DNA of 64,000 nt from an uncultured Bifidobacterium sp. (GTDB lineage: Bacteria; Actinomycetota; Acidimicrobiia; Acidimicrobiales; Ilumatobacteraceae): the NCBI GenBank assembly GCA_964563545.1, contig CAZLXB010000001.1:80064-144063 (forward strand), given 5' to 3'. Below, piece after piece: positions 12,111-39,446 of this stretch. How positions within the stretch are numbered: the first letter of the stretch is position 1; every line of letters starts with the position of its first letter. Under the pieces are notes generated by a model. The model was given only the letters and a program-made list of their open reading frames with translations, was not told where the DNA came from and ran no database searches. The translations under genes and the position numbers were made by a program.

Positions 12111-12628
12111 GCAGATCGAGTCGCATCGAATCCGACCTGTTGCTCGGCGAATGGGCCTGTCTCGGAATCGTCGCGCAAGAACCCACTCATGGTTTTGCGG
12201 TGGCGGCCCGGCTGAGGATCGACGGCGATGTCGGTCGTGTCTGGTCCCTGACCCGTCCGCTGACGTACCGAGCGATCGACCACCTCACGTCGATCGGCTA
12301 CGTCGAACCGGTTCGAGAAGAACAAGGCGTGGCCGGCGGAAATCGGACGATCATTCGCATCACACGGTCAGGTCGTTCCCAACTCTTACGTTGGCTCGCC
12401 ACCCCTACCACTCACCTGCGCGACCTGCGTAGCGAGTTCCTTCTCAAATTGACGCTGGGCGAGACGCTCGGCCTGGAGAACCGGACTCTGATCCGCGAAC
12501 AGAGAAAGATCGTCGAGCGGATTCTGAAAGGCCTCACCTCGCCCGCCACGGGAAACCTCGACCACGTGACCGTGTGGCGGATCGAAGCCGCCGAAGCCGC
12601 CCGCCGGTTCCTCGATCAGTTGTCCTGA
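12107..12628 (+). CDS. PadR-family transcriptional regulator
   Basis: The 173-aa ORF has a winged-helix N-terminus (LLLGEWACLGIVAQEPTHGFAVAARL...WSLTRPLTYRAIDHLTSIGYVE). A GTGA overlap couples it to modC. Confidence 0.75.
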   Translation: MSRSSRIESDLLLGEWACLGIVAQEPTHGFAVAARLRIDGDVGRVWSLTRPLTYRAIDHLTSIGYVEPVREEQGVAGGNRTIIRITRSGRSQLLRWLATPTTHLRDLRSEFLLKLTLGETLGLENRTLIREQRKIVERILKGLTSPATGNLDHVTVWRIEAAEAARRFLDQLS

Positions 12629-14211
12629 ATCACGCCTCCGAGGATGGGCAACAACGTCAATTCGGGTTCGTCCGAGATCAATCGCTGAAGTCGGTAGCGG
12701 TTCTCGAACAAGGCGACCAAGGCTCCGTCACCACGCTTCAGGATTCGAATCCCGCCGATTCGACGTAGGCGGTCGACCGAAGCATCGTCGGTGAGCCTGA
12801 TCGCCTGATAGCCCGCCGGCTCGATTCGACTCGGGGCGTTGAACTCGCTGTCGAGTCGATGGGCGAACACCTCGAACTGGAGTTGGCCGACGGCAGCCAG
12901 GATCGGATCAGCATCACCCATGTCAGGATCGCGAAGGACTTGGACGACACCCTCCTCGTCGAGTTGGGCCAGACCCTTGCGGAACTGCTTGAACTTGCCG
13001 GTGTCGACCGGACGCGCGGTGGCGAAGACTTCGGGTTCGAATCGCGGGACGCCGGGGAACTCCACGCGGGGCCCGGCGAACAGCGAGTCGCCGATCTGCA
13101 AACCGGCGGCGTTGATGAGCCCGATGATGTCCCCCGGATACGCCGTCTCGATCGTCTCACGCTCGGAACCGAACGCGGTTGTCGCGTACTTCGTACCTAC
13201 CGGCTTGGCCGTACGCGCATTGGTCACGTCCATCGAACGAACGAACTCACCCGAGCACACTCGCGCGAACGCGAGCCGGTCCCGGTGGTTCGGATCCATG
13301 TTGGCCTGCACCTTGAACACGAACGCCGAGAATGGAGAGTCGATCGTTCGCGGAACTCCACCGACGTCCTCTCGCGGTTGCGGGGATGGTGCGTAGTCGG
13401 CAACCGCGTCGAGCAACATTCGAACCCCGAAGTTCGTGAGGGCCGAGCCCACGAACACCGGTGTGGACTTGCCGGCGAGGAACGAAGGCATGTCGACGTC
13501 AGCGCCGATCGCCTCGAGAAGCCCGCATCCGTCGAGGGCTGTCTGCCAAGCCGATCCCTCTTCACGGGCGGCCACTTCGCGGTCGACCAATTCCTCCGGA
13601 GCGAGCGACGCACCGCGTGCCGTACGCGTGAATCGGATGTAGTCACCCGATCGACGATCGATGACTCCACGGAAATCGCCCGGGATCCCGACCGGCCAGG
13701 TCGCGGGCGTGGGTCGCAGTCCGATCTGCTCCTCGACCTCGTCGAGGAGTTCGAGCGGATCCCGACCGGGTCGGTCGTACTTGTTGAAGAACGTGATGAC
13801 CGGGAGGTTGCGACTCCGGCACACTTGGAACAGCTTGAGTGTCTGGGACTCGATGCCCTTCGCGGTGTCGAGCACCATGATCACCGCATCCACGGCGGCG
13901 AGCACGCGATACGTGTCCTCGGAGAAGTCGCGGTGACCCGGCGTGTCGAGGAGGTTGATCACCTTGTCGCCGTACGGAAACTGCAAGACAGCCGACGAGA
14001 TCGAAATACCGCGCTGACGCTCCAGTTCCATCCAGTCCGACGTCGCGCCGCGCCGATCACCACGCGCATGAACCGCACCGGCCTCTTGAATCGCACCCGC
14101 ATACAGCAGGAACTTCTCGGTCAGGGTGGTCTTTCCAGCGTCGGGATGGCTGATGATCGCAATCGTCCGCCGACGAGCAGCCTCCGAATCGACGTTCACG
14201 TTTCCCGACAC
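12616..14211 (-). CDS. prfC: Peptide chain release factor 3
   Basis: The 531-aa ORF has the GTPase G1 motif AIISHPDAGKTTLTEK and DTPGHRDF. Its overall length is typical of PrfC. Confidence 0.9.
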   Translation of the reverse strand: MSGNVNVDSEAARRRTIAIISHPDAGKTTLTEKFLLYAGAIQEAGAVHARGDRRGATSDWMELERQRGISISSAVLQFPYGDKVINLLDTPGHRDFSEDTYRVLAAVDAVIMVLDTAKGIESQTLKLFQVCRSRNLPVITFFNKYDRPGRDPLELLDEVEEQIGLRPTPATWPVGIPGDFRGVIDRRSGDYIRFTRTARGASLAPEELVDREVAAREEGSAWQTALDGCGLLEAIGADVDMPSFLAGKSTPVFVGSALTNFGVRMLLDAVADYAPSPQPREDVGGVPRTIDSPFSAFVFKVQANMDPNHRDRLAFARVCSGEFVRSMDVTNARTAKPVGTKYATTAFGSERETIETAYPGDIIGLINAAGLQIGDSLFAGPRVEFPGVPRFEPEVFATARPVDTGKFKQFRKGLAQLDEEGVVQVLRDPDMGDADPILAAVGQLQFEVFAHRLDSEFNAPSRIEPAGYQAIRLTDDASVDRLRRIGGIRILKRGDGALVALFENRYRLQRLISDEPELTLLPILGGVIQDN

Positions 14212-22602: not shown

Positions 22603-23112
22603 TCAGTATGGTTCGACAGCCGGAGCCACATCTTCGCCTCGAAGACGAGCCCGCGCCGCCTGACCGCGTTTGCCCGCCGGCACGGCCCCGGTCACACCGG
22701 CCAAACCGAAAGTCGGCATGTTCCCGTAGACGGTCTCGACCGATGCATCGGACAACACGATCGTCTCGTGGTAGATACCGACCGAACCGTTGTCGCGAAT
22801 CCTCTTGTTGAACGCCCGCCAAGCCGGCAGATGCGCGAGGTCCGAGTTCCGTGAATACGACTCGAGCTTCTCGAAGGACTCCCAGTACTGCCACACGAGA
22901 AGAGTCCGCCCCGACAAGAAGAGTCGCGGGCGAGCGACAAGACCGAGTTCGGGGTTCTTCATGAGTTCGCTGATCATGCGGGGCATGGACACGAAGACCG
23001 GCATCCACTTCCAAACCTTGACCAAGCTGTTGATCCGCATTCCGATGAGGAAGAGGACCTTCCCATCAGCACCGGTGTCGGCCGTGAATCGCCCCTTGTT
23101 GATTCGTGCCAT
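22603..23112 (-). CDS. DUF4188-like protein
   Basis: The 169-aa ORF starts at the ATG at 23112 (MARINKGRFTAD...FLIGMRIN...WQYWESFEKLESY). The pattern matches my memory of DUF4188. The longer N-terminal extension in the track is Arg/Ser-rich and overlaps the next gene. Confidence 0.6.
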   Translation of the reverse strand: MARINKGRFTADTGADGKVLFLIGMRINSLVKVWKWMPVFVSMPRMISELMKNPELGLVARPRLFLSGRTLLVWQYWESFEKLESYSRNSDLAHLPAWRAFNKRIRDNGSVGIYHETIVLSDASVETVYGNMPTFGLAGVTGAVPAGKRGQAARARLRGEDVAPAVEPY

Positions 23113-23158
23113 GACCGCCAAGGTAGCCGCAACCCACAGAAGGGAGACGCCCCTCGAT

Positions 23159-23617
23159 TCAGAGTGTGTAGCGGTAGACGTTCGTGTCGCGGAGTTCGAA
23201 ACCGAGTCGCTGATACAAGCGGTTGGCGGCCTCTCGCGACGGTCGCGACGTGAGGTCGACGGTGATCGCTCCGTTCTCCTTCGCGTACCGAAGCGCTTCA
23301 CGGTTGAGTGCATCGCCCACACCATGCCCGCGCGCCTCGGCATCGACGACGACGTCCTCGATCCACGCACGAACACCGGTGGGAATTCGAAACATGGCGA
23401 GCGTGAGGGTGCCCACGATCCGCCCGTGCAGCCGGGCCACGAAGAGGGTCGATGCCCGATCGGCGGCGATTTCCTCGAGGGCCGCCCGAGACGGAGGCGG
23501 GTTCGACGACGACAACTGAGGAATCAGTCGTTCGAACGCGGCGACGACCTCGTCGTCGATCACCTCGCAGATGGAAACCTCGACTGCCACTCCGACCTCC
23601 GGGTGCTCGGTGAACAT
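23159..23617 (-). CDS. GNAT family N-acetyltransferase
   Basis: The 152-aa ORF has the acetyl-CoA binding motif VVVDAEARGHGVGDAL and RLYQRLGF. Confidence 0.8.
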   Translation of the reverse strand: MFTEHPEVGVAVEVSICEVIDDEVVAAFERLIPQLSSSNPPPSRAALEEIAADRASTLFVARLHGRIVGTLTLAMFRIPTGVRAWIEDVVVDAEARGHGVGDALNREALRYAKENGAITVDLTSRPSREAANRLYQRLGFELRDTNVYRYTL

Positions 23618-23647
23618 CCTACGGTTGCCGTGTCGTACCGTTGCCGC

Positions 23648-24550
23648 ATGTCATCGGATGCACTCTTGGCCAACGCTCGAGCTCTCGGTGGAGCTCTCGA
23701 ACCTTTCGTGGGACAGGTCTACTTCTCCCCCGAATGCCACCGTAACTACGCGGCGCTCGGTTTCCAGCCGAGCCCGGGTGAGATGAACGGTGTCGCGCTC
23801 CCCGAAGGAATCTCATACTTCACGAGTCGTGGTTCGCTCATGGGGCAGGTCCCCGGAGAACTCGTGGCGGCGGCATTCGCCGTGTTCAACCCGATCGTCG
23901 TGGTCCCCTCGGTCACCGCCGGCTGGAAGATCACCAATGCCGCCACTATCTGTGCCGCCCGACGCGACGGTGCCATCGCCCAACTCGAACGCATCGTCGG
24001 CGCGAAGCCCGGCGGTGTCACCAAGATCCGACCGATACTCGAACGCGCCGTAGGTGCCCTGCGACCGGAAGGTCGTCCTCTCTTCGCCGGAACCCTGTCG
24101 CAAGTCGTGCCGTCATCGGACCTCGGCGCGTGCTGGCACTTCGGCGACATGCTCCGTGAGTTCCGTGGCGATTCGCACACCGCAGCGTGGATCGCGGCCG
24201 GCCTCGACGCCACCGAAATCGGATTGCTCACCGAATTGTTCTGGGGGTTGCCCCTCAAGTCGTACAGCCGCACGCGTGGGTGGAGCGAGGACGACTACAC
24301 GGCGGCCATCGATCGACTCGAATCGCGCGGACTCATTGCGGATGGGGTCTTCACCACCAAGGGCCGTGAACTTCGTGAGTCGGTCGAGATCCGGACCGAC
24401 GAACAGATGCGCCCCGCGATGCAGGCCATCGGCGACGATTTCACCCAACTCGTCGAAGTTCTGGGCACGTGGAGTCGCGCCGTCCAGGCCATGAAGGGTT
24501 ACCCCGAATCCGGCCCGCACGAATTGGCCGAAGCGGCTTCCCGCCGATGA
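23648..24550 (+). CDS. Conserved hypothetical helical protein (possibly SCO6745-like)
   Basis: The 300-aa ORF starts at the ATG at 23648 (MSSDALLANARALGGALEPFVGQVYFSPE...). The upstream 286 codons of the track ORF are antisense to three recognisable genes, so I rejected them. Confidence 0.6.
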   Translation: MSSDALLANARALGGALEPFVGQVYFSPECHRNYAALGFQPSPGEMNGVALPEGISYFTSRGSLMGQVPGELVAAAFAVFNPIVVVPSVTAGWKITNAATICAARRDGAIAQLERIVGAKPGGVTKIRPILERAVGALRPEGRPLFAGTLSQVVPSSDLGACWHFGDMLREFRGDSHTAAWIAAGLDATEIGLLTELFWGLPLKSYSRTRGWSEDDYTAAIDRLESRGLIADGVFTTKGRELRESVEIRTDEQMRPAMQAIGDDFTQLVEVLGTWSRAVQAMKGYPESGPHELAEAASRR

Positions 24551-25872
24551 GCGATCTCGCCATCATCAACGCGACGATCCTGCCCATGGGCGGTCGTCCC
24601 CGGATCGACGATGGAGTGGTCACGATCTCGGGAAATTGCATCGAAGCCGTTGGCCCGTCAACCGAGGTTTCGGTGACCGGCGCGAAGAAGGTGATCGATG
24701 CACAAGGTGGAGTCGTGATGCCCGGCTTCGCCAACAGTCATACGCACATTGCCTCGAATCTGCTCTTGCGCGGCCTTCTCGAAGACGTCCTTCTCTTCGA
24801 GTGGCTACAAACCATGTGGCAGTTGAAGCGGAACTTCGATCACGACACCCTCTATTGGGCCAGCCTGTGCGGGCTGCTCGAGATGACCAAAGCCGGCATC
24901 ACCTCGTTCAACGAACACTTCGATGCCTACGCGGTCGAACCGGAGATCGAAGCGCTGAAGGTGATCCCACTTCGCGCGACCCTCGGACACGGATTCGCTG
25001 ACCGTGGTCTCTACGAGTCGATCACCGAGAAGTCCTGGCGGACTCTGGAGAACTTCGGTGAGATCGTGGCCGCTCACCATCGCACACGGGACGACATGCT
25101 CTGGATGGCACTTTCACCCCATGCGGTGTATTCGTGCGGTGCCGAGATGTGGAATCTCGTTCGCGCGGTGGCCGATGAGTACCGCGTTCCGATCCACACC
25201 CATCTCTCCGAAGGCATGCAGGAAGTCCGCTACTGCCTCGAGAACTACGGTCTGCGACCGACCCAATGGCTCCACTCCCTCGGCTTCCTCGGCCCGGACG
25301 TGACCGCGGCACACTGTTCGCAACTCGACGCGACCGACATCAAGCTCATCGCCGAGACCGGAACCAAAATCGCTCACTGCCCCATCTGCAATGCGAAGCT
25401 CGGCTCGGGCACCATGCCACTTCGCGAAGTGATCGAAGCAGGCATCACCGTGGGCCTCGCCACCGATGGTCCGGCGAGTCACAACTCGAGCGACCTCTTC
25501 GAAGAGATGAAATTCGCGGGTCTGATCCACAAGACCAAAACCGGTGACGTCGAGTTCCTGAAGATCGGGCAACTTCTCGAACTCTCCACCTGCGAAGGGG
25601 CCAAGGCCATGAACAGGCCCGATACCGGGCGACTCGAACCCGGCTTCAAAGCTGACGTGATCGTGGTCCGACTCGACACCGCCCACTCCCAGCCGATCTA
25701 CGACCCGCTGGCGGCACTTGTGTATTCAGCCCGAGCCGACGACGTCCAGCACACCATCGTCAACGGGCGTGTCCTGATGGAGAACCGGCAGGTCATCGGC
25801 GTCGACGAAGACGAAATTCGGGCCAGGTTCCACGAGAAGGCTCACGCACTCAAGAAGAAGAGCCTCGGCTGA
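24547..25872 (+). CDS. Amidohydrolase, TRZ/ATZ or MtaD-like deaminase family
   Basis: It has the metal-binding motifs GFANSHTHI and IHTHLSEG, plus a late DG...HN segment. At 441 aa it overlaps the upstream gene by ATGA. Confidence 0.85.
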   Translation: MSDLAIINATILPMGGRPRIDDGVVTISGNCIEAVGPSTEVSVTGAKKVIDAQGGVVMPGFANSHTHIASNLLLRGLLEDVLLFEWLQTMWQLKRNFDHDTLYWASLCGLLEMTKAGITSFNEHFDAYAVEPEIEALKVIPLRATLGHGFADRGLYESITEKSWRTLENFGEIVAAHHRTRDDMLWMALSPHAVYSCGAEMWNLVRAVADEYRVPIHTHLSEGMQEVRYCLENYGLRPTQWLHSLGFLGPDVTAAHCSQLDATDIKLIAETGTKIAHCPICNAKLGSGTMPLREVIEAGITVGLATDGPASHNSSDLFEEMKFAGLIHKTKTGDVEFLKIGQLLELSTCEGAKAMNRPDTGRLEPGFKADVIVVRLDTAHSQPIYDPLAALVYSARADDVQHTIVNGRVLMENRQVIGVDEDEIRARFHEKAHALKKKSLG

Positions 25873-25911: not shown

Positions 25912-26991
25912 ATGATCCTCGACCAGCTTTCGGTACCGAGTTCCGACTTCGCCACCGCCACCGGATGGGAGCCCAAACCCGAGGGTCTCTGCCGCGGTGA
26001 GATCTGTGTCCCGGCTCCGGGTGCGCTCGACGGCCCGAACGTGAACGTCGAACGGGCGGCCGCTCGTCTGGGGATGCCGCTCGTCCATGACTCCGATCAC
26101 GGCGTGTGGTCGCTCGGTCCAGCCACTCTTGGCGGCCACTCCCTGTCGACGGCCGTGGCCGCCGATCCCGAACTCAAGAATTTCGACGGATCGACCTTCA
26201 AACTGTCGTCTCTTCGAGGACGCAAGGTCGTGTTCGTTGCTTGGGCGAGTTATTGAGGCTGCCGTTCGAGTCTGCCCGGGTGGCAGGCACTCCACGCTGA
26301 AATCGAACCGCTCGGAGCAACGGTCGTGACCGTCGCCCTCGACATCGACATCGAACACGCTCGACCTTGGAGTGCGGCCGCGTCGCCCACCCATCCTTGT
26401 GTGGTCGACACCACCCATGTGACCGGCCAGATGTTCGGATTCACGAACATTCCGATGGCCGTCTGGATCGATGAGAACGGGTATCTCGTGCGTCCGGCCG
26501 AAGGTGCCTCGATCGAACGCAGTCCACTGCGAGACATGGAGATCCCCGACGGTCTTCCCGAACGACTCGATGCCATGTACCGGGCCGTCAAGGCGATCCC
26601 GGACGACGCCGACGAATACAGGGCCGCGATCCTCGACTGGGTGCGCCATGGTGCATCGTCGAGATTCGCCCTCTCTCCGGATGAAGTTGTTGCGCGAAGT
26701 CAGCCCCGTTCCGACGATGAGGCACGGGCGGCCGCGTGTTTCGAACTCGGTGAACATCTCCGGCGCACGGTCGGTCCCGAAGCCGCCGTCCCGTGGTGGC
26801 GCGAAGCCCACCGCCTGCATCCACTGAATCTCACGTACAAGCGCCAAGCCTGGACGCTCGTCACCACCGCTCCCGACGCAACCGAGAACGACCTCATGCA
26901 GGGTCCGAACGAGGTCTACGAAAGCAACCTTCTGGATGATGTTCTGGGTGCCGGCGGATTCGGAGCCTTCATCGTTCGGCCGCAACTCTGA
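25912..26991 (+). CDS. Thioredoxin-fold (TlpA/ResA-like) protein with an in-frame UGA at the redox site; candidate selenoprotein, or alternatively a nonsense-disrupted pseudogene
   Basis: Track ORFs 25912..26256 and 26326..26991 share one frame, and the TGA at 26254-26256 is the only stop between them. Read-through gives KVVFVAWASY-U-GCRSSLPGWQALHAEIEPLGATVVTVALD. Confidence 0.6.
26268..26292 (+). promoter_or_regulatory. Candidate bacterial SECIS-like hairpin
   Basis: The element GAGUCUGCC-CGGGU-GGCAG(GC)ACUC forms 9 bp with a 2-nt bulge and a 5-nt loop containing GGU. It starts 11 nt after the UGA. Confidence 0.4.
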
Positions 26992-27000
26992 CGCGGTAGC

Positions 27001-27960
27001 GTGTCGGCAATGGCCGATCTCGAACACGTTCGGTGGATCCGGAGGCCCGAACTCCGCAAGCCGTACGTCGTCGCTGCCTTCACCGGCTGGAACGACGCCG
27101 CCGATGCTGCGAGTTCCGCGGTTCGCCACCTCGTCGAGACCATGGACGCCACTCCGCTCGCCGAAATCGACCCCGAAGCGTTCACCAACTTCGAGGTGAT
27201 CCGACCGCACGTGCGTCTCTCCGACGTCGGCCAACGTCACATCGTGTGGCCGACGGTGAGTCTCTGGACCGCCAGCACTCCCGAGCGCGATCTCATCCTC
27301 GTCCTCGGACCCGAGCCCTCCATGCAATGGAAGGCCTTCTGCAATCAACTCGTCGGCATCGCTACGGCGTACAAGGCCGTCTCCATCGTCACCATCGGCG
27401 CGCTGGTCGCCGACGTCGCACACCGTCGACCGACGCAGGTTCTGAGTACATCGTCCGACCAAGGTCTGATCGACCGTTTCGATCTCCGTCCGAGCCAGTA
27501 CGAAGGACCGACCGGAATCACCAGCGTTCTCGGTGATGCGTTCAACCGAGCCGACATGCCCAACATCGCTCTGTGGGCCGCCGTGCCCACGTATGCATCG
27601 CAGATCACCTCGCCGAAGGCTGCCCTCGCCCTCGTCGAACGACTCGGTGAAATCCTCGATACCGATCTTCCGTCGTTGCCGCTCAGCGAACTCGTCGAGC
27701 AATACGAAGAGCAGATCGACGAGATGATCAGCCAGGACGATTCGCTGACCCGTTATCTCGAGCGGATCGAGAACCTCGACGACGACGAAGACTACGAATA
27801 CGACGAGGACGACGACATCGATCTGGCGGCGGAAGACGACAACTCACTGCCGCTCGATGATCGCCCTCGCGATGACACGCCACTTCCTGACGGTCCGGTC
27901 GACAGTGACGCCCTCATGGAAGAGGTCGAGCGGTTCCTCCGTAGTCAGAGCGACGACTAA
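27001..27960 (+). CDS. PAC2 (proteasome assembly chaperone 2-like) family protein with an acidic tail
   Basis: PYVVAAFTGWNDAADAASSAVRHL is typical of actinobacterial PAC2 proteins. The C-terminus is highly acidic. The start is either GTG at 27001 or ATG at 27010. Confidence 0.75.
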   Translation: MSAMADLEHVRWIRRPELRKPYVVAAFTGWNDAADAASSAVRHLVETMDATPLAEIDPEAFTNFEVIRPHVRLSDVGQRHIVWPTVSLWTASTPERDLILVLGPEPSMQWKAFCNQLVGIATAYKAVSIVTIGALVADVAHRRPTQVLSTSSDQGLIDRFDLRPSQYEGPTGITSVLGDAFNRADMPNIALWAAVPTYASQITSPKAALALVERLGEILDTDLPSLPLSELVEQYEEQIDEMISQDDSLTRYLERIENLDDDEDYEYDEDDDIDLAAEDDNSLPLDDRPRDDTPLPDGPVDSDALMEEVERFLRSQSDD

Positions 27961-35628: not shown

Positions 35629-36297
35629 ATGGTCTTGTCGTCGTTGCGGTCGCCCCTCGTGTCACCCGGCTCACGGAGCCGATTGGTCGCGGTCGTCGTC
35701 GGGGCGGTTCTCACCATCGCCGCATGTGGCGAGTCGTCGAACCGCTACCTCGCGAACTCGGAGGAGAAGGTCTTCTTGAGGGTTCCGCGTGATTGGAACG
35801 AGATCGAGTTCACGGATACCGATGCCGATCGCCTCGAAAGTCTCACGTCACAGGCCACTGTGGTCTGGCGGGCGGGCAGCACCTCGGCGCCCGATCCGGC
35901 GCCCGACACCGTGAGTTCGGAGGCCCCGCTCGCGTTCACCGCGGTCTACGAACTCTCCGGACAACTCAATCAGCAGATGTCGGCCTCGCTCGCCCGTCTC
36001 GCCGCTTCACCCACCGGCTTCGACCCGGTTCTGCCGTCCGACGATGCCCAGAGCGCCCTCGTCGAAGTGCTGGACTATCAGCCACTCGGATTCGAGGGCG
36101 TCAACGGAAGTCGCATCGTGTTCCGACTCCGCGACTCCGACACCGACTCGTGGAAGGCCGTGTACGACGTGAGCGCGGCCTACGACTCCAAGCGATTCCG
36201 TCTCTATGTTCTGCAGGTTGGTTGCAGCGCTTCCTGCTACGAACTCAACAAGTCGACTATCTCCGCGATCGCGGATTCCTGGCTGGTGAAAACGTGA
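35629..36297 (+). CDS. Hypothetical lipoprotein
   Basis: The signal peptide has the lipobox IAAC. The 222-aa ORF is joined to the downstream FtsH-like gene by a GTGA overlap. Confidence 0.6.
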   Translation: MVLSSLRSPLVSPGSRSRLVAVVVGAVLTIAACGESSNRYLANSEEKVFLRVPRDWNEIEFTDTDADRLESLTSQATVVWRAGSTSAPDPAPDTVSSEAPLAFTAVYELSGQLNQQMSASLARLAASPTGFDPVLPSDDAQSALVEVLDYQPLGFEGVNGSRIVFRLRDSDTDSWKAVYDVSAAYDSKRFRLYVLQVGCSASCYELNKSTISAIADSWLVKT

Positions 36298-38648
36298 CCG
36301 ACATCGTCCCTGGCAACGATCTCCCCGAGATCGTCAACGTTCCACTCCTCGAGGCTCCGCCCGAGAAGCGTCGCAAGATGTTCTTCTTCGACCGGATCAA
36401 GGTATTCGTCGTCCTCGGCATCTACGTGGTCATCACCGCGTCGTACGAACAGAGCCAGATCCCGCTCATGTCCTGGGGTGAGGCATTCCGTGACCAGTCA
36501 CGAGCCAAGTGGTGGGTGTGGATCGTCGCTGGCATCGAACTCCTCCGCCAGATCCACATCCTCATCAGCGAACGGTCGGCCGGCTGGAACACTTGGTGGC
36601 AGCGCAAGGTATGGGACGCATGGGAGCGCCAGATGACGCGCTTCAAGCCGTACACGAGGTTCCGTCTCAACCGTCTGGTGAAGCGGCTCATCTTCGTGAC
36701 GCTGCTCGGATTCGTGCTGTCGTGGAAGTGGAGTCTCCCCTTCTTCCAGGCTCTGGCTGAGGCTCCGAGCCGTTGGTTCAACATCCTCTTCGTCGAACGC
36801 AATGTCGGAACGCCACTCGCCATTTCGATTCTGTTGTCGGTCACGTTCAGCGCCTTCTATCTCATCTTCTTCTACGGCATCTTCTTCATCGGTGGAATCG
36901 AGACCTTCAAGCCCGGAGAGATCAAGACCCGCTTCAAGGACATCTGGGGCCAGGATCACGTGGTCAACCGCGTGAAGGAGAACCTCGACTTCCTCGAGAA
37001 GCCTCAAGACATCGAATCGAAGGGTGGATACGTCCCGAGTGGCATCCTCCTCTGGGGTCCCCCCGGTACCGGCAAGACGTTGATGGCCGAGGCAGCCGCC
37101 GGTGAAACCGAACGGCCGTACGTGTTCGTGGACCCCCAGGCTTTCGTCCAAACCTTCATGGGTGTCGCACCGATGAAGATGAAGTGGCTCTACCGACGCC
37201 TCCGCAAGCTCGCATTGCGCTACGGAGGTGTGGTCGTCTTCTTCGACGAAGCCGATGTGCTCGGAAGTCGCGGGCAGATCAGTGGGCAGTTCGACAACGC
37301 CGAAGCACTCGCCCGTGAACAGGTCGACCATCTGCACTGGCTTTCACCGGCCAGCCAGCACTTGATTCTCGATCAACTTCGCAGCAACTCGACCCCCGGA
37401 CACGATGCCCACAGCCAACCGTCCCCGCGCCGGACTCTCCGCGAGCGGATCATCATGGCCGGTATGGGTGGTGGCGGGATGGGGACACTCCAGTCGCTCC
37501 TCACCGAAATGAACGGATTGAACAAGCCCCGTGGCTTCTTCTCGCGCCGACTCCGTCAGTTCCTGAACATGCCGGCCAAGAAACCACCGAAGTACCGCAT
37601 CCTCCATATCTTCGCCACCAACCTGCCCAGTGCTCTCGACGCAGCTCTCCTTCGTCCCGGACGTATCGACCGCATCTACAAGGTCGGTTACCCCATGAAG
37701 GAAGGTCGCAAGAAGACGTACGAGGGCTACTTCGCCAAGGTGAAGCACACGCTCTCCGCCGACGACATCGAGCGACTCGCAGTGATGACCCCGTATTCCA
37801 CCGGTGCGTCGATCAAGGATCTCGTCAACGAAGCACTGTTGGTGGCCCTTCGCGAAGGCCGCGAGATCGTCACGTGGAACGACGTCATTCAGGCGCGCTA
37901 TCTCCGCAAGGTCGGCGAGCACGAACACGTCGACTACATCGAACGCGAACGACATGCCATCGCGCTGCACGAGGCCTCTCATGCGGTCGCGGCGTACATG
38001 CGCCGCAAGGATCTCGTGATCGACTTCGTGAGCATCGAACCGGGTGGCAGCTACCTCGGAGTCGTATCGAGCACATACGACGACGAAACCTTCCTCCGGT
38101 GGCGCAGCACCTTCGAGATCGACATCCTCGTTTCACTCGCATCGCTGGCCGGTGAGCGGCTCTTCTTCGGCGGTGACTCATCGGCCGGTGTGAGCGGCGA
38201 CCTCCGGAACGCAACCACGGTCTCGACCTGGATGGAGGCGATGTGGGGAATGGGCTCCACCATCTCCTCGGCACCGGCTCTCATTCAGACCATCGGGGCC
38301 GGATTCCCCACTGCGACCGGCACCAACATCGATCGTGAAGCGGCCAATCTCTCGAGCCGTATCGAGAGTCGCCTCAGTCGGATCTACGACCAAGCCCGAG
38401 ATCTGCTCAGCGAACAGCGCACCATGGTGCTGGCCGTCGCTCACGCCCTCGAGACACACAAGACGATCAGCGGCGAAGACGTGGCGGCGATCATCGAGAA
38501 CTCGGTCGGACCCAAGGTCGACGGTCGCGTGTATCACCAACCCGGATTCGCTGCGATCGCCGAGCAGTATCACGTGGCCGCACTCGAGGCCCACCAGCAG
38601 GTCGACGACGTTTCCGCGCCGCTACCGGTGCTCCCACCCGTCGAGTGA
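36294..38648 (+). CDS. Atypical FtsH-family AAA+ zinc metalloprotease paralog
   Basis: It has Walker A (GPPGTGKT), a pore loop (TFMG), Walker B (VVFFDEAD), sensor-1 (ATN), an SRH segment (LLRPGRIDR), and HEXXH (HEASH). It has four predicted N-terminal TM helices and about 78 extra residues inside the AAA module compared with E. coli FtsH. Confidence 0.85.
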   Translation: MTDIVPGNDLPEIVNVPLLEAPPEKRRKMFFFDRIKVFVVLGIYVVITASYEQSQIPLMSWGEAFRDQSRAKWWVWIVAGIELLRQIHILISERSAGWNTWWQRKVWDAWERQMTRFKPYTRFRLNRLVKRLIFVTLLGFVLSWKWSLPFFQALAEAPSRWFNILFVERNVGTPLAISILLSVTFSAFYLIFFYGIFFIGGIETFKPGEIKTRFKDIWGQDHVVNRVKENLDFLEKPQDIESKGGYVPSGILLWGPPGTGKTLMAEAAAGETERPYVFVDPQAFVQTFMGVAPMKMKWLYRRLRKLALRYGGVVVFFDEADVLGSRGQISGQFDNAEALAREQVDHLHWLSPASQHLILDQLRSNSTPGHDAHSQPSPRRTLRERIIMAGMGGGGMGTLQSLLTEMNGLNKPRGFFSRRLRQFLNMPAKKPPKYRILHIFATNLPSALDAALLRPGRIDRIYKVGYPMKEGRKKTYEGYFAKVKHTLSADDIERLAVMTPYSTGASIKDLVNEALLVALREGREIVTWNDVIQARYLRKVGEHEHVDYIERERHAIALHEASHAVAAYMRRKDLVIDFVSIEPGGSYLGVVSSTYDDETFLRWRSTFEIDILVSLASLAGERLFFGGDSSAGVSGDLRNATTVSTWMEAMWGMGSTISSAPALIQTIGAGFPTATGTNIDREAANLSSRIESRLSRIYDQARDLLSEQRTMVLAVAHALETHKTISGEDVAAIIENSVGPKVDGRVYHQPGFAAIAEQYHVAALEAHQQVDDVSAPLPVLPPVE

Positions 38649-39446
38649 TCAGCCCGGGCTGTAACGCACGGCTTGGTCGCCCCGCGTGAAGCCATACAAG
38701 GTGATTCCCGCCCGCTTGGCGGTCTGCACCGCCAATGCAGTGGGGGCGCTCACCGACACCACCGTGCCAAAGCCCGCCGCCCACGCTTTCTGAATCATCT
38801 CGAAGCTCGCCCGACCGGAAACGAAAAGACCGAGATCGGTGGCCGGTAGTCGACGATCGAGCAGTAGACGACCCACGACTTTGTCGACGGCATTGTGGCG
38901 ACCGACGTCTTCGCGTACGACCACGATTTCGCCATGTTCCGTGAAGGCGGCCGCCCCGTGCACGGCACCGGTCTCGCTGAATAGGTCCTGACCACTCTGA
39001 ACGACTTCGGAAATTCCAAGAATGATCTCGCGATCGATGCGCGGCACTCGCGAAAGTTCGAGCGGGGTCAGTCGGTCGGCGAGTTCGTCGATCGATTGCG
39101 AACCACACAGACCACAACTCGACGATGTCGTGCCCAGCCTCGGGGCCGGGACCGGGGCCCGGCCACCGGTTTCCACGGTCACGACGTTGAAATTGCTGTC
39201 GGCGGCCGAACCGTTCGCGCAATAACGGACACTCACGACCGGATGTCCGGAGAGCAGACCATCGGCGTGGCAGAAACCAACCGCGAGTTCGTAGTCGTGG
39301 CCCGGCGTTCGCATCGTGGTGGCGACGAGGTGACCATCGAGTTGAATCGACATCGGTTCCTCGACCACCAGTTGATCGGGAAGTCGGCGATCGCGAACAC
39401 CCTGAATCTTGACGACCAGAACGGTGTCGGTGCGCTTGCGGGCCAC
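38649..39446 (-). CDS. fdhD: Formate dehydrogenase accessory sulfurtransferase
   Basis: The 265-aa ORF has SSCGLCG (the Cys loop) and GRHNAVDK, both FdhD signatures. Confidence 0.85.
   Translation of the reverse strand: MARKRTDTVLVVKIQGVRDRRLPDQLVVEEPMSIQLDGHLVATTMRTPGHDYELAVGFCHADGLLSGHPVVSVRYCANGSAADSNFNVVTVETGGRAPVPAPRLGTTSSSCGLCGSQSIDELADRLTPLELSRVPRIDREIILGISEVVQSGQDLFSETGAVHGAAAFTEHGEIVVVREDVGRHNAVDKVVGRLLLDRRLPATDLGLFVSGRASFEMIQKAWAAGFGTVVSVSAPTALAVQTAKRAGITLYGFTRGDQAVRYSPG

Follow-up and report, generated by a model that had tools for sequence, protein, structure and literature searches.

An in-frame TGA within a single reading frame

The stretch of DNA analysed here (the window, 64,000 nucleotides, with a G+C content of 63%) carries on its forward strand two open reading frames (ORFs), 25912..26256 (114 amino acids, aa) and 26326..26991 (221 aa), which lie in a common frame and are separated by a single intervening stop, the TGA at 26254-26256. 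Our analysis indicates that 25912-26991 is very probably one selenoprotein gene of the WAxxUGC family, a group described as UGC-containing peroxiredoxin-like (Prx-like) or TlpA-like, in which UGA 26254 would encode selenocysteine (Sec) by means of a bacterial selenocysteine insertion sequence (SECIS). An initial annotation had already described the two ORFs as one frame broken by this lone TGA, and re-reading the window returned the same layout with an identical read-through sequence. Two features define the locus:

25912..26991, + strand: predicted selenoprotein coding sequence, member of NF041054, 359 codons plus the terminal TGA at 26989-26991 (single frame, profile match, ortholog constraint).
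26254..26256, + strand: in-frame UGA, predicted to be read as Sec (U115) in W-A-S-Y-U-G-C (TGA in 81/81 orthologs, Cys in full-length homologs, alignment with the N-terminal Cys of ResA/TlpA).

Read-through of 25912-26991 yields a product of 359 residues, which around the stop reads ...VVFVAWASY-[TGA]-GCRSSLPGWQ..., with the motif W-A-S-Y-[TGA]-G-C at 26242-26262; on either side of TGA 26254-26256 the read-through sequence is ...RGRKVVFVAWASY and GCRSSLPGWQALHAEIEPLGATVVTVALDIDIEH... respectively. Of the 16 annotated genes of the window, 14 have TGA as their ordinary stop, this very gene (26989-26991) among them, so the genetic code is not reassigned and any decoding of TGA 26254 must be local. 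A scan of the window for further recoded TGAs with high G+C at third codon positions on both flanks returned only antisense-looking frames.

Conservation of the TGA and of the coding constraint

A scan of one genome per species identified 80 orthologous loci with a full-length match, giving 81 sequences with that of the window. The orthologs share 65-94% aa identity with the window protein and all come from metagenome-assembled genomes (MAGs) of Acidimicrobiia/Ilumatobacteraceae type, mostly from rivers and lakes. The homologous codon is TGA in every one of the 81 sequences (80/80 orthologs plus the window), always within the WAxxUGC motif, and the frame is open in all of them, with at least 112 codons before the TGA, 243-268 codons after it, and neither a second stop nor a frameshift. 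The decay that further stops or frameshifts in close relatives would have betrayed is thus not seen among these sequences.

Coding constraint was measured over the same 81 sequences as the mean pairwise divergence by codon position, expressed as the ratio of position 3 to position 2. This ratio is 2.58 upstream of the TGA and 2.90 downstream, and the 23 codons that separate the TGA from the next possible start give 2.70, meaning that codon-position periodicity is continuous across the TGA and that the 23 codons do read like protein, as the initial annotation had held. Codon usage next to the TGA shows a bias of its own: the preceding Tyr codon (position -1; window context 26248-26259) is TAT in 66 of 66 Tyr-bearing orthologs and never TAC, the Ser codon at -2 is AGT in 65 cases and AGC in 10, and the Gly codon at +1 is GGC in 77/81. 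The preference for A/U-ending codons around the UGA in a genome of 63% G+C may reflect a decoding-context requirement.

The public protein databases carry a clear footprint of the interrupted frame. Most relatives are deposited either as C-terminal fragments of 204-244 aa whose starts are inconsistent or as N-terminal fragments ending in ...VAWAS[YW], and in a library clustered at 50% identity, 13 clusters are N-terminal stubs that end exactly at ...VAWAS[YW]. Such stubs are the signature of gene callers halting at a recoded TGA and indicate that the recoded form is widespread, in keeping with the expectation that standard ORF calling would split these loci. One database entry (P0039) is frameshifted and joins the selenoprotein gene to the PAC2 gene that follows it. 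By comparison, full-length relatives of 340-410 aa have Cys at the TGA column in a C-x-C arrangement, mostly WASWCGC with the variants CSC, CEC, CLC and CRC; WAS[YW]-C-x-C occurs in P0001, P0005, P0008, P0016, P0119 and more than 25 representative clusters. The column therefore holds TGA in all close orthologs and Cys in full-length homologs, the two states that had been proposed as the ones to look for.

A hairpin downstream of the TGA

The RNA following the TGA can form a hairpin that lies entirely within the coding sequence:

26270..26288, + strand: bacterial SECIS-type hairpin; 5' arm 26270-26276 (GUCUGCC), loop 26277-26281 (CGGGU), 3' arm 26282-26288 (GGCAGGC).

The hairpin core begins 13 nt past the TGA and its loop 20 nt past the UGA. 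The initial annotation had placed a hairpin 11 nt downstream; the structure is real, while the figure of 11 nt corresponds to a window-specific extension from G26268 and the conserved core starts at 13 nt. All orthologs have in common the sequence ...AGC CUGCC CGGGU GGCAG GC... after the TGA. Across 65 distinct sequences, standard pairs are found in 97.1% of cells, and RNAalifold recovers the same six-pair helix. One pair covaries (pair 25-39 of alignment A1: CG 55, UA 6, UG 3, with one C-A exception), through synonymous changes of Leu (CUG/UUG) and Gln (CAG/CAA), and two other pairs vary only between C-G and U-G. Synonymous diversity at codons +5 to +10 is 0.12-0.29, against a gene-wide mean of 0.49, and a minority loop variant, AGGUU, retains G-G-U.

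The published bacterial SECIS (bSECIS) model, as cited in the 2026 review, calls for a loop of 3-9 nt, an upper stem of 4-16 bp, a G in the first two loop positions that is usually followed by G or U, a UGA-to-loop distance of 16-37 nt and a minimum free energy of -7.5 kcal/mol or lower (PMC13188914). The hairpin of the window lies within all of these bounds, with its 5-nt loop CGGGU (G at loop position 2, then G), a stem of 6-7 bp, a spacing of 20 nt and a folding energy of -10.2 kcal/mol. Like the SECIS of E. coli fdhF, it sits in the coding region directly after the UGA and has a small apical loop with G-G/U, and its UGA-to-loop spacing falls in the 16-37 nt range of the fdhF/bSECIS consensus. 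Unlike the fdhF element, with which it has no sequence similarity, no bulged U was found in it, and SelB binding is here a prediction. The hairpin is conserved among TGA-containing orthologs and absent from the DNA of two Cys-type homologs, L081 (P0008) and L082 (P0001), where unrelated sequence occupies its place and the peptide at that position is DHLAAWQ and DGIASWQ, as opposed to SSLPGWQ in the window.

Family identity

For profile searches we used the protein with Cys in place of the TGA stop. It matches NCBIfam NF041054.1 'WAxxUGC_long' (an equivalog model, 'ResA-like WAxxUGC motif-containing protein') at 475 bits (cutoff 300; E=1.6e-142), and the match covers aa 1-349 and profile positions 1-345 of 354. 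The ResA-like WAxxUGC family that the initial annotation had pointed to thus exists, and the window protein, in which nothing that defines the family differs, is an ordinary member. The NCBIfam models for ResA, TlpA and StoA score far below their cutoffs (33.2 vs 170, 29.5 vs 230 and 21.3 vs 210 bits, respectively). Pfam recognises the central domain only, residues 83-201, as PF00578 AhpC-TSA (41.3 bits; gathering threshold 26) and Redoxin (39.1 bits). In peroxiredoxins the peroxidatic Cys stands in the context P-x-x-x-T/S-x-x-C and is accompanied by a catalytic Arg; the window protein reads V-A-W-A-S-Y-U around U115, which puts a Ser at -2 but no T/S at -3, and the nearest solved relatives by both sequence and fold are ResA/TlpA, not peroxiredoxins.

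The family is already known, being curated in NCBIfam and present in published selenoproteome surveys since 2008. A Sargasso Sea study of 2005 recorded one UXC Prx-like sequence (PMC1088965). The 2008 Global Ocean Sampling (GOS) selenoproteome listed a 'Prx-like (UGC-containing)' family (pfam00578, motif UGC), counted 46 Sec sequences in it and found it at higher abundance in non-marine samples (PMC2398784), and a review of 2026 names a 'UGC-containing TlpA family' among selenoproteins (PMC13188914). The window protein shares with the NF041054 and GOS families the W-A-x-x-U-G-C motif and a thioredoxin-fold core matching pfam00578, and the non-marine enrichment fits its occurrence in freshwater Acidimicrobiia/Ilumatobacteraceae MAGs. 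The correspondence between the UGC families of the literature and the NF041054 'long' model is suggested by their common motif and Pfam/CDD domain, and not by direct sequence comparison. A literature search did not find the string 'WAxxUGC', a search on Ilumatobacter and selenocysteine returned only irrelevant papers, and the UGC family is absent from the main text of Peng et al. 2016.

Protein architecture and relation to ResA and TlpA

Beyond the active site, three regions can be distinguished in the read-through protein:

25990..26007, + strand: N-terminal C27-R-G-E-I-C32 (CxxxxC) pair, within a beta-rich N-terminal domain of ~aa 1-70.
26164..26505, + strand: thioredoxin-fold core with U115-G-C117 and the N-I-P cis-Pro loop, ~aa 85-198 (approximate boundaries, transferred from the P0001 model).
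26560..26967, + strand: all-helical C-terminal domain of TPR-like character, ~aa 217-352 (helices 221-356 of the P0001 model).

Among 34 full-length family members, C27 and C32 are at least 90% conserved, and the nearly invariant residues are C27, C32, U/C115, C117, R118 and the N-[IV]-P cis-Pro loop. A profile of these 34 members compared with the PDB matches ResA, TlpA, DsbE and related thioredoxin-family structures with E=1e-18 to 1e-27, including 3kcm, 1st9 (ResA) and 1jfu (TlpA); for the ResA, TlpA and CcmG (DsbE) group the values reach 1e-24 to 1e-27. In the profile alignment WASWC-G-CR is set against WATWC-PP-CR, with a one-residue deletion relative to CxxC, which places U115 at the N-terminal attacking Cys and makes the spacer one residue shorter than in CxxC. 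The suggestion that the TGA stands for the nucleophilic N-terminal Cys of ResA/TlpA, in a U-G-C centre with a single spacer residue, is therefore borne out.

The fold was modelled with AlphaFold2 on the 61%-identical Cys homolog P0001. The model (predicted local distance difference test score 93.5, predicted template modelling score 0.91) has a thioredoxin fold at its centre, preceded by a beta-rich N-terminal domain, itself modelled with high confidence, and followed by a helical C-terminal one, so that the regions previously singled out as unaccounted for by a plain thioredoxin fold (that of CRGEIC and the C-terminal helical extension) appear as two additional domains. Foldseek found matches for the core only; ResA 1st9/2f9s gave a template modelling (TM) score of 0.76-0.78 when normalised to the target, ~0.30 when normalised to the query, and a root-mean-square deviation of ~2 A; target-normalised TM scores for TlpA 1jfu and 4txo are 0.56-0.58. 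Searched against solved structures, neither flanking domain of the P0001 model has a counterpart. The C-terminal helices give TPR-like PDB profile matches at profile positions 262-311, and weak PF07719 marks occur on database fragments.

No hydrophobic segment is present in the window protein (the maximum Kyte-Doolittle value over 19 residues is 1.14, inside the thioredoxin fold), nor a membrane anchor or signal peptide, which indicates that the protein is probably cytoplasmic, unlike ResA and TlpA. The distant Cys-type members P0154, P0172 and P0174 have signal-peptide-like hydrophobic N-termini; the family may include exported forms, with the Sec forms here looking cytoplasmic.

Compared with ResA, TlpA and CcmG (DsbE), the window protein has the same thioredoxin-fold core with a TlpA-type insertion, the W-A-[ST]-W-C...C-R context and the cis-Pro loop. 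It differs from these extracytoplasmic proteins in its U-G-C centre (C-x-C in homologs), one residue shorter than CxxC, in lacking an anchor or signal peptide, and in its extra N-terminal CxxxxC and C-terminal helical domains. It would work like a thiol-disulfide oxidoreductase of the ResA/TlpA type while standing outside that family, since the CxxC motif, the location and the model scores all fail. The Cys-type homologs P0001, P0005 and P0008 are single proteins of 350-370 aa with the same three-domain architecture, 57-61% identity and the four conserved Cys positions, but have TGC or TGT instead of TGA and, in the DNA of P0001 and P0008, no SECIS hairpin. The Cys-type P0008 (L081 8001-9098) has a different neighbourhood, with genes of GSHPx, OsmC, Usp and MarR/TetR type, a setting that fits an oxidative-stress role of the family.

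Proposed mechanism and alternative explanations

The analysis shows the single frame, the conservation of the TGA, the Sec/Cys pairing, the conserved hairpin with its fit to the SECIS model, the family membership and the fold. Sec insertion itself, the redox chemistry, the substrate and any functional link to PAC2 are inferred. In the proposed mechanism, the hairpin 26270-26288 would act as the SECIS and recruit SelB-GTP-Sec-tRNA(Sec), and UGA 26254 would be decoded as selenocysteine instead of a stop during translation. Sec115, standing where the N-terminal cysteine does in CxxC, would attack a disulfide or peroxide substrate, and Cys117, in the place of the resolving cysteine, would resolve the intermediate as a selenenylsulfide. 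Because the spacer is one residue shorter than in CxxC, oxidation would give a strained U-G-C selenenylsulfide.

Several points weigh against this interpretation. No tRNA-Sec was found in the window (ARAGORN, Rfam) or in 60 related loci (ARAGORN), and tblastn with E. coli SelA, SelB and SelD over the window and 82 loci (917 kb) found no selA, selB or selD. The sel genes are normally unlinked to their target genes, so the failure to find them within the window and 917 kb of related loci is not a negative result. Folded as a single sequence, the hairpin does not stand out in energy from shuffled GC-rich sequence (z = 0.28 and 0.56); such z-scores are uninformative in GC-rich sequence, and the case for a SECIS consequently rests on comparative evidence. 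The covariation consists of a single pair in a nearly invariant stem that also codes for the conserved L-P-G-W-Q. Covariation is thin because the stem hardly varies, and this lack of variation, to judge by the suppressed synonymous diversity, is informative in itself. An alternative helix, in which 26258-26263 (GCUGCC, the G116-C117 codons) pairs with the 3' arm 26282-26288, is equally conserved (97.9% of cells paired in orthologs) without covariation, its 5' arm being fixed by the G-C codons; it could be a mutually exclusive helix or a mere consequence of protein constraint. Finally, the structural model depicts the Cys homolog P0001 and not the window protein, and the activity, likely thiol/selenol-dependent disulfide or peroxide reduction in the cytoplasm, is one that we infer.

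The doubt left beside a selenoprotein gene lies mostly with read-through of the UGA without Sec, whereby Trp or Cys would be inserted by a near-cognate tRNA, or decoding would follow a route of the Cys-tRNA(Sec) type, with the hairpin acting only to slow termination. The missing Sec machinery in the window and related loci speaks for such read-through (release factor 3, encoded in the window, is neutral either way), but the loop size, loop G-G, spacing and energy of the hairpin all agree with the SelB-type bSECIS model, the UGA falls on a redox-active Cys position and forms a classic Sec/Cys pair, the family is curated and published as selenoproteins, and TGA is otherwise the main stop codon of the window. 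We consider this explanation improbable.

Still less credible is a pair of separate genes, one for a 114-aa N-terminal protein that stops at the TGA and one for a protein of ~221 aa starting from GTG 26326. A GGAG at 26314-26317 does precede this GTG, and gene callers do give separate products. However, the interval that such a model leaves untranslated, the 23 codons from TGA to GTG, is as constrained in frame as the remainder of the gene (ratio 2.70), and encodes the conserved G-C-R...W-Q helix that completes the thioredoxin active site; two separate genes would each hold only part of the thioredoxin fold, cut through its middle. The starts called for the C-terminal fragment are also inconsistent (products of 204-244 aa), whereas Cys-type homologs are continuous proteins of 350-370 aa. 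A pseudogene, in which a nonsense mutation cut a former Cys-type thiol-disulfide oxidoreductase and left its downstream part to decay, would explain why the standard ORF call splits the locus and why the family's database entries are mostly fragments, but is effectively refuted by the TGA and intact frames kept in 81/81 orthologs diverged to 65% aa identity, with no extra stop or frameshift, and by position-3/position-2 ratios of 2.7-2.9 over the 244 downstream codons, as high as upstream; in addition, the curated selenoprotein model NF041054 matches over the full length.

Gene neighbourhood

A PAC2-family gene follows the putative selenoprotein gene closely and is a matter of context, not a recoding device:

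27001..27960, + strand: PAC2-family gene (PF09754, 175.7 bits), a conserved neighbour starting 10 nt after the selenoprotein stop.

In 76 of the 80 orthologous loci a PAC2 gene comes directly after the selenoprotein gene and shares its strand, which makes it a probable operon partner. In the orthologs, the conserved order is a SCO6745-family helix-turn-helix (HTH) gene (61 loci), the selenoprotein gene and PAC2 (76/80), followed on the opposite strand by NUDIX (63 loci) and glnD (43 loci). In the window an amidohydrolase gene of TRZ/ATZ type (24469-25872, + strand) stands between the HTH gene and the selenoprotein gene. It resembles methylthioadenosine/S-adenosylhomocysteine or 5'-deoxyadenosine deaminases at scores under all curated cutoffs, occurs at this place in 19 orthologous loci only, and looks like a lineage-specific insertion; as listed, its ORF has 82 nt in common with the end of the ORF upstream of it (22790-24550). 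The amidohydrolase was rejected as a selenium link, the 'selenium metabolism protein SsnA' model scoring 181 bits against a cutoff of 455 and the gene being present in only those 19 loci.

Two other candidates for a connection with Sec decoding were set aside. The lone weak match to SelB is peptide chain release factor 3 (prfC, window 12616-14211, - strand, 635 bits). The initial annotation had also pointed to fdhD (38649-39446, - strand) as a hint of a formate dehydrogenase. The gene is genuine, just below curated cutoffs, but the hint fails: no catalytic subunit of formate dehydrogenase (fdhA) is found next to it, and fdhD is an orphan beside an FtsH-like AAA gene, with no bearing on the use of Sec. 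The abutting ORF (35793-38648, + strand, 951 aa) has its FtsH/AAA match only from ~residue 380, and its first ~370 residues match nothing in NCBIfam.

Significance

Scientifically the locus adds little, because the family has already been curated in NCBIfam and surveyed since 2008. Its residual value lies in the three-domain architecture, in a U-x-C centre where relatives use U-x-x-C, and in the conserved PAC2 neighbour. We know of no established function for bacterial PAC2 proteins. A bolder and rather unlikely idea is that the three domains form a cytoplasmic redox module, in which the CxxxxC pair would relay electrons to, or be a built-in substrate of, the strained U-x-C centre, and which could work with the PAC2 protein; if this were true, bacterial PAC2 proteins would gain a redox partner.

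In almost all public assemblies gene callers have broken this gene up, so that most database entries are 'hypothetical proteins' of 204-244 aa or stubs of 115 aa. Once the recoded TGA is recognised, a complete predicted redox enzyme is regained in abundant freshwater Acidimicrobiia, which would imply that these bacteria depend on selenium.

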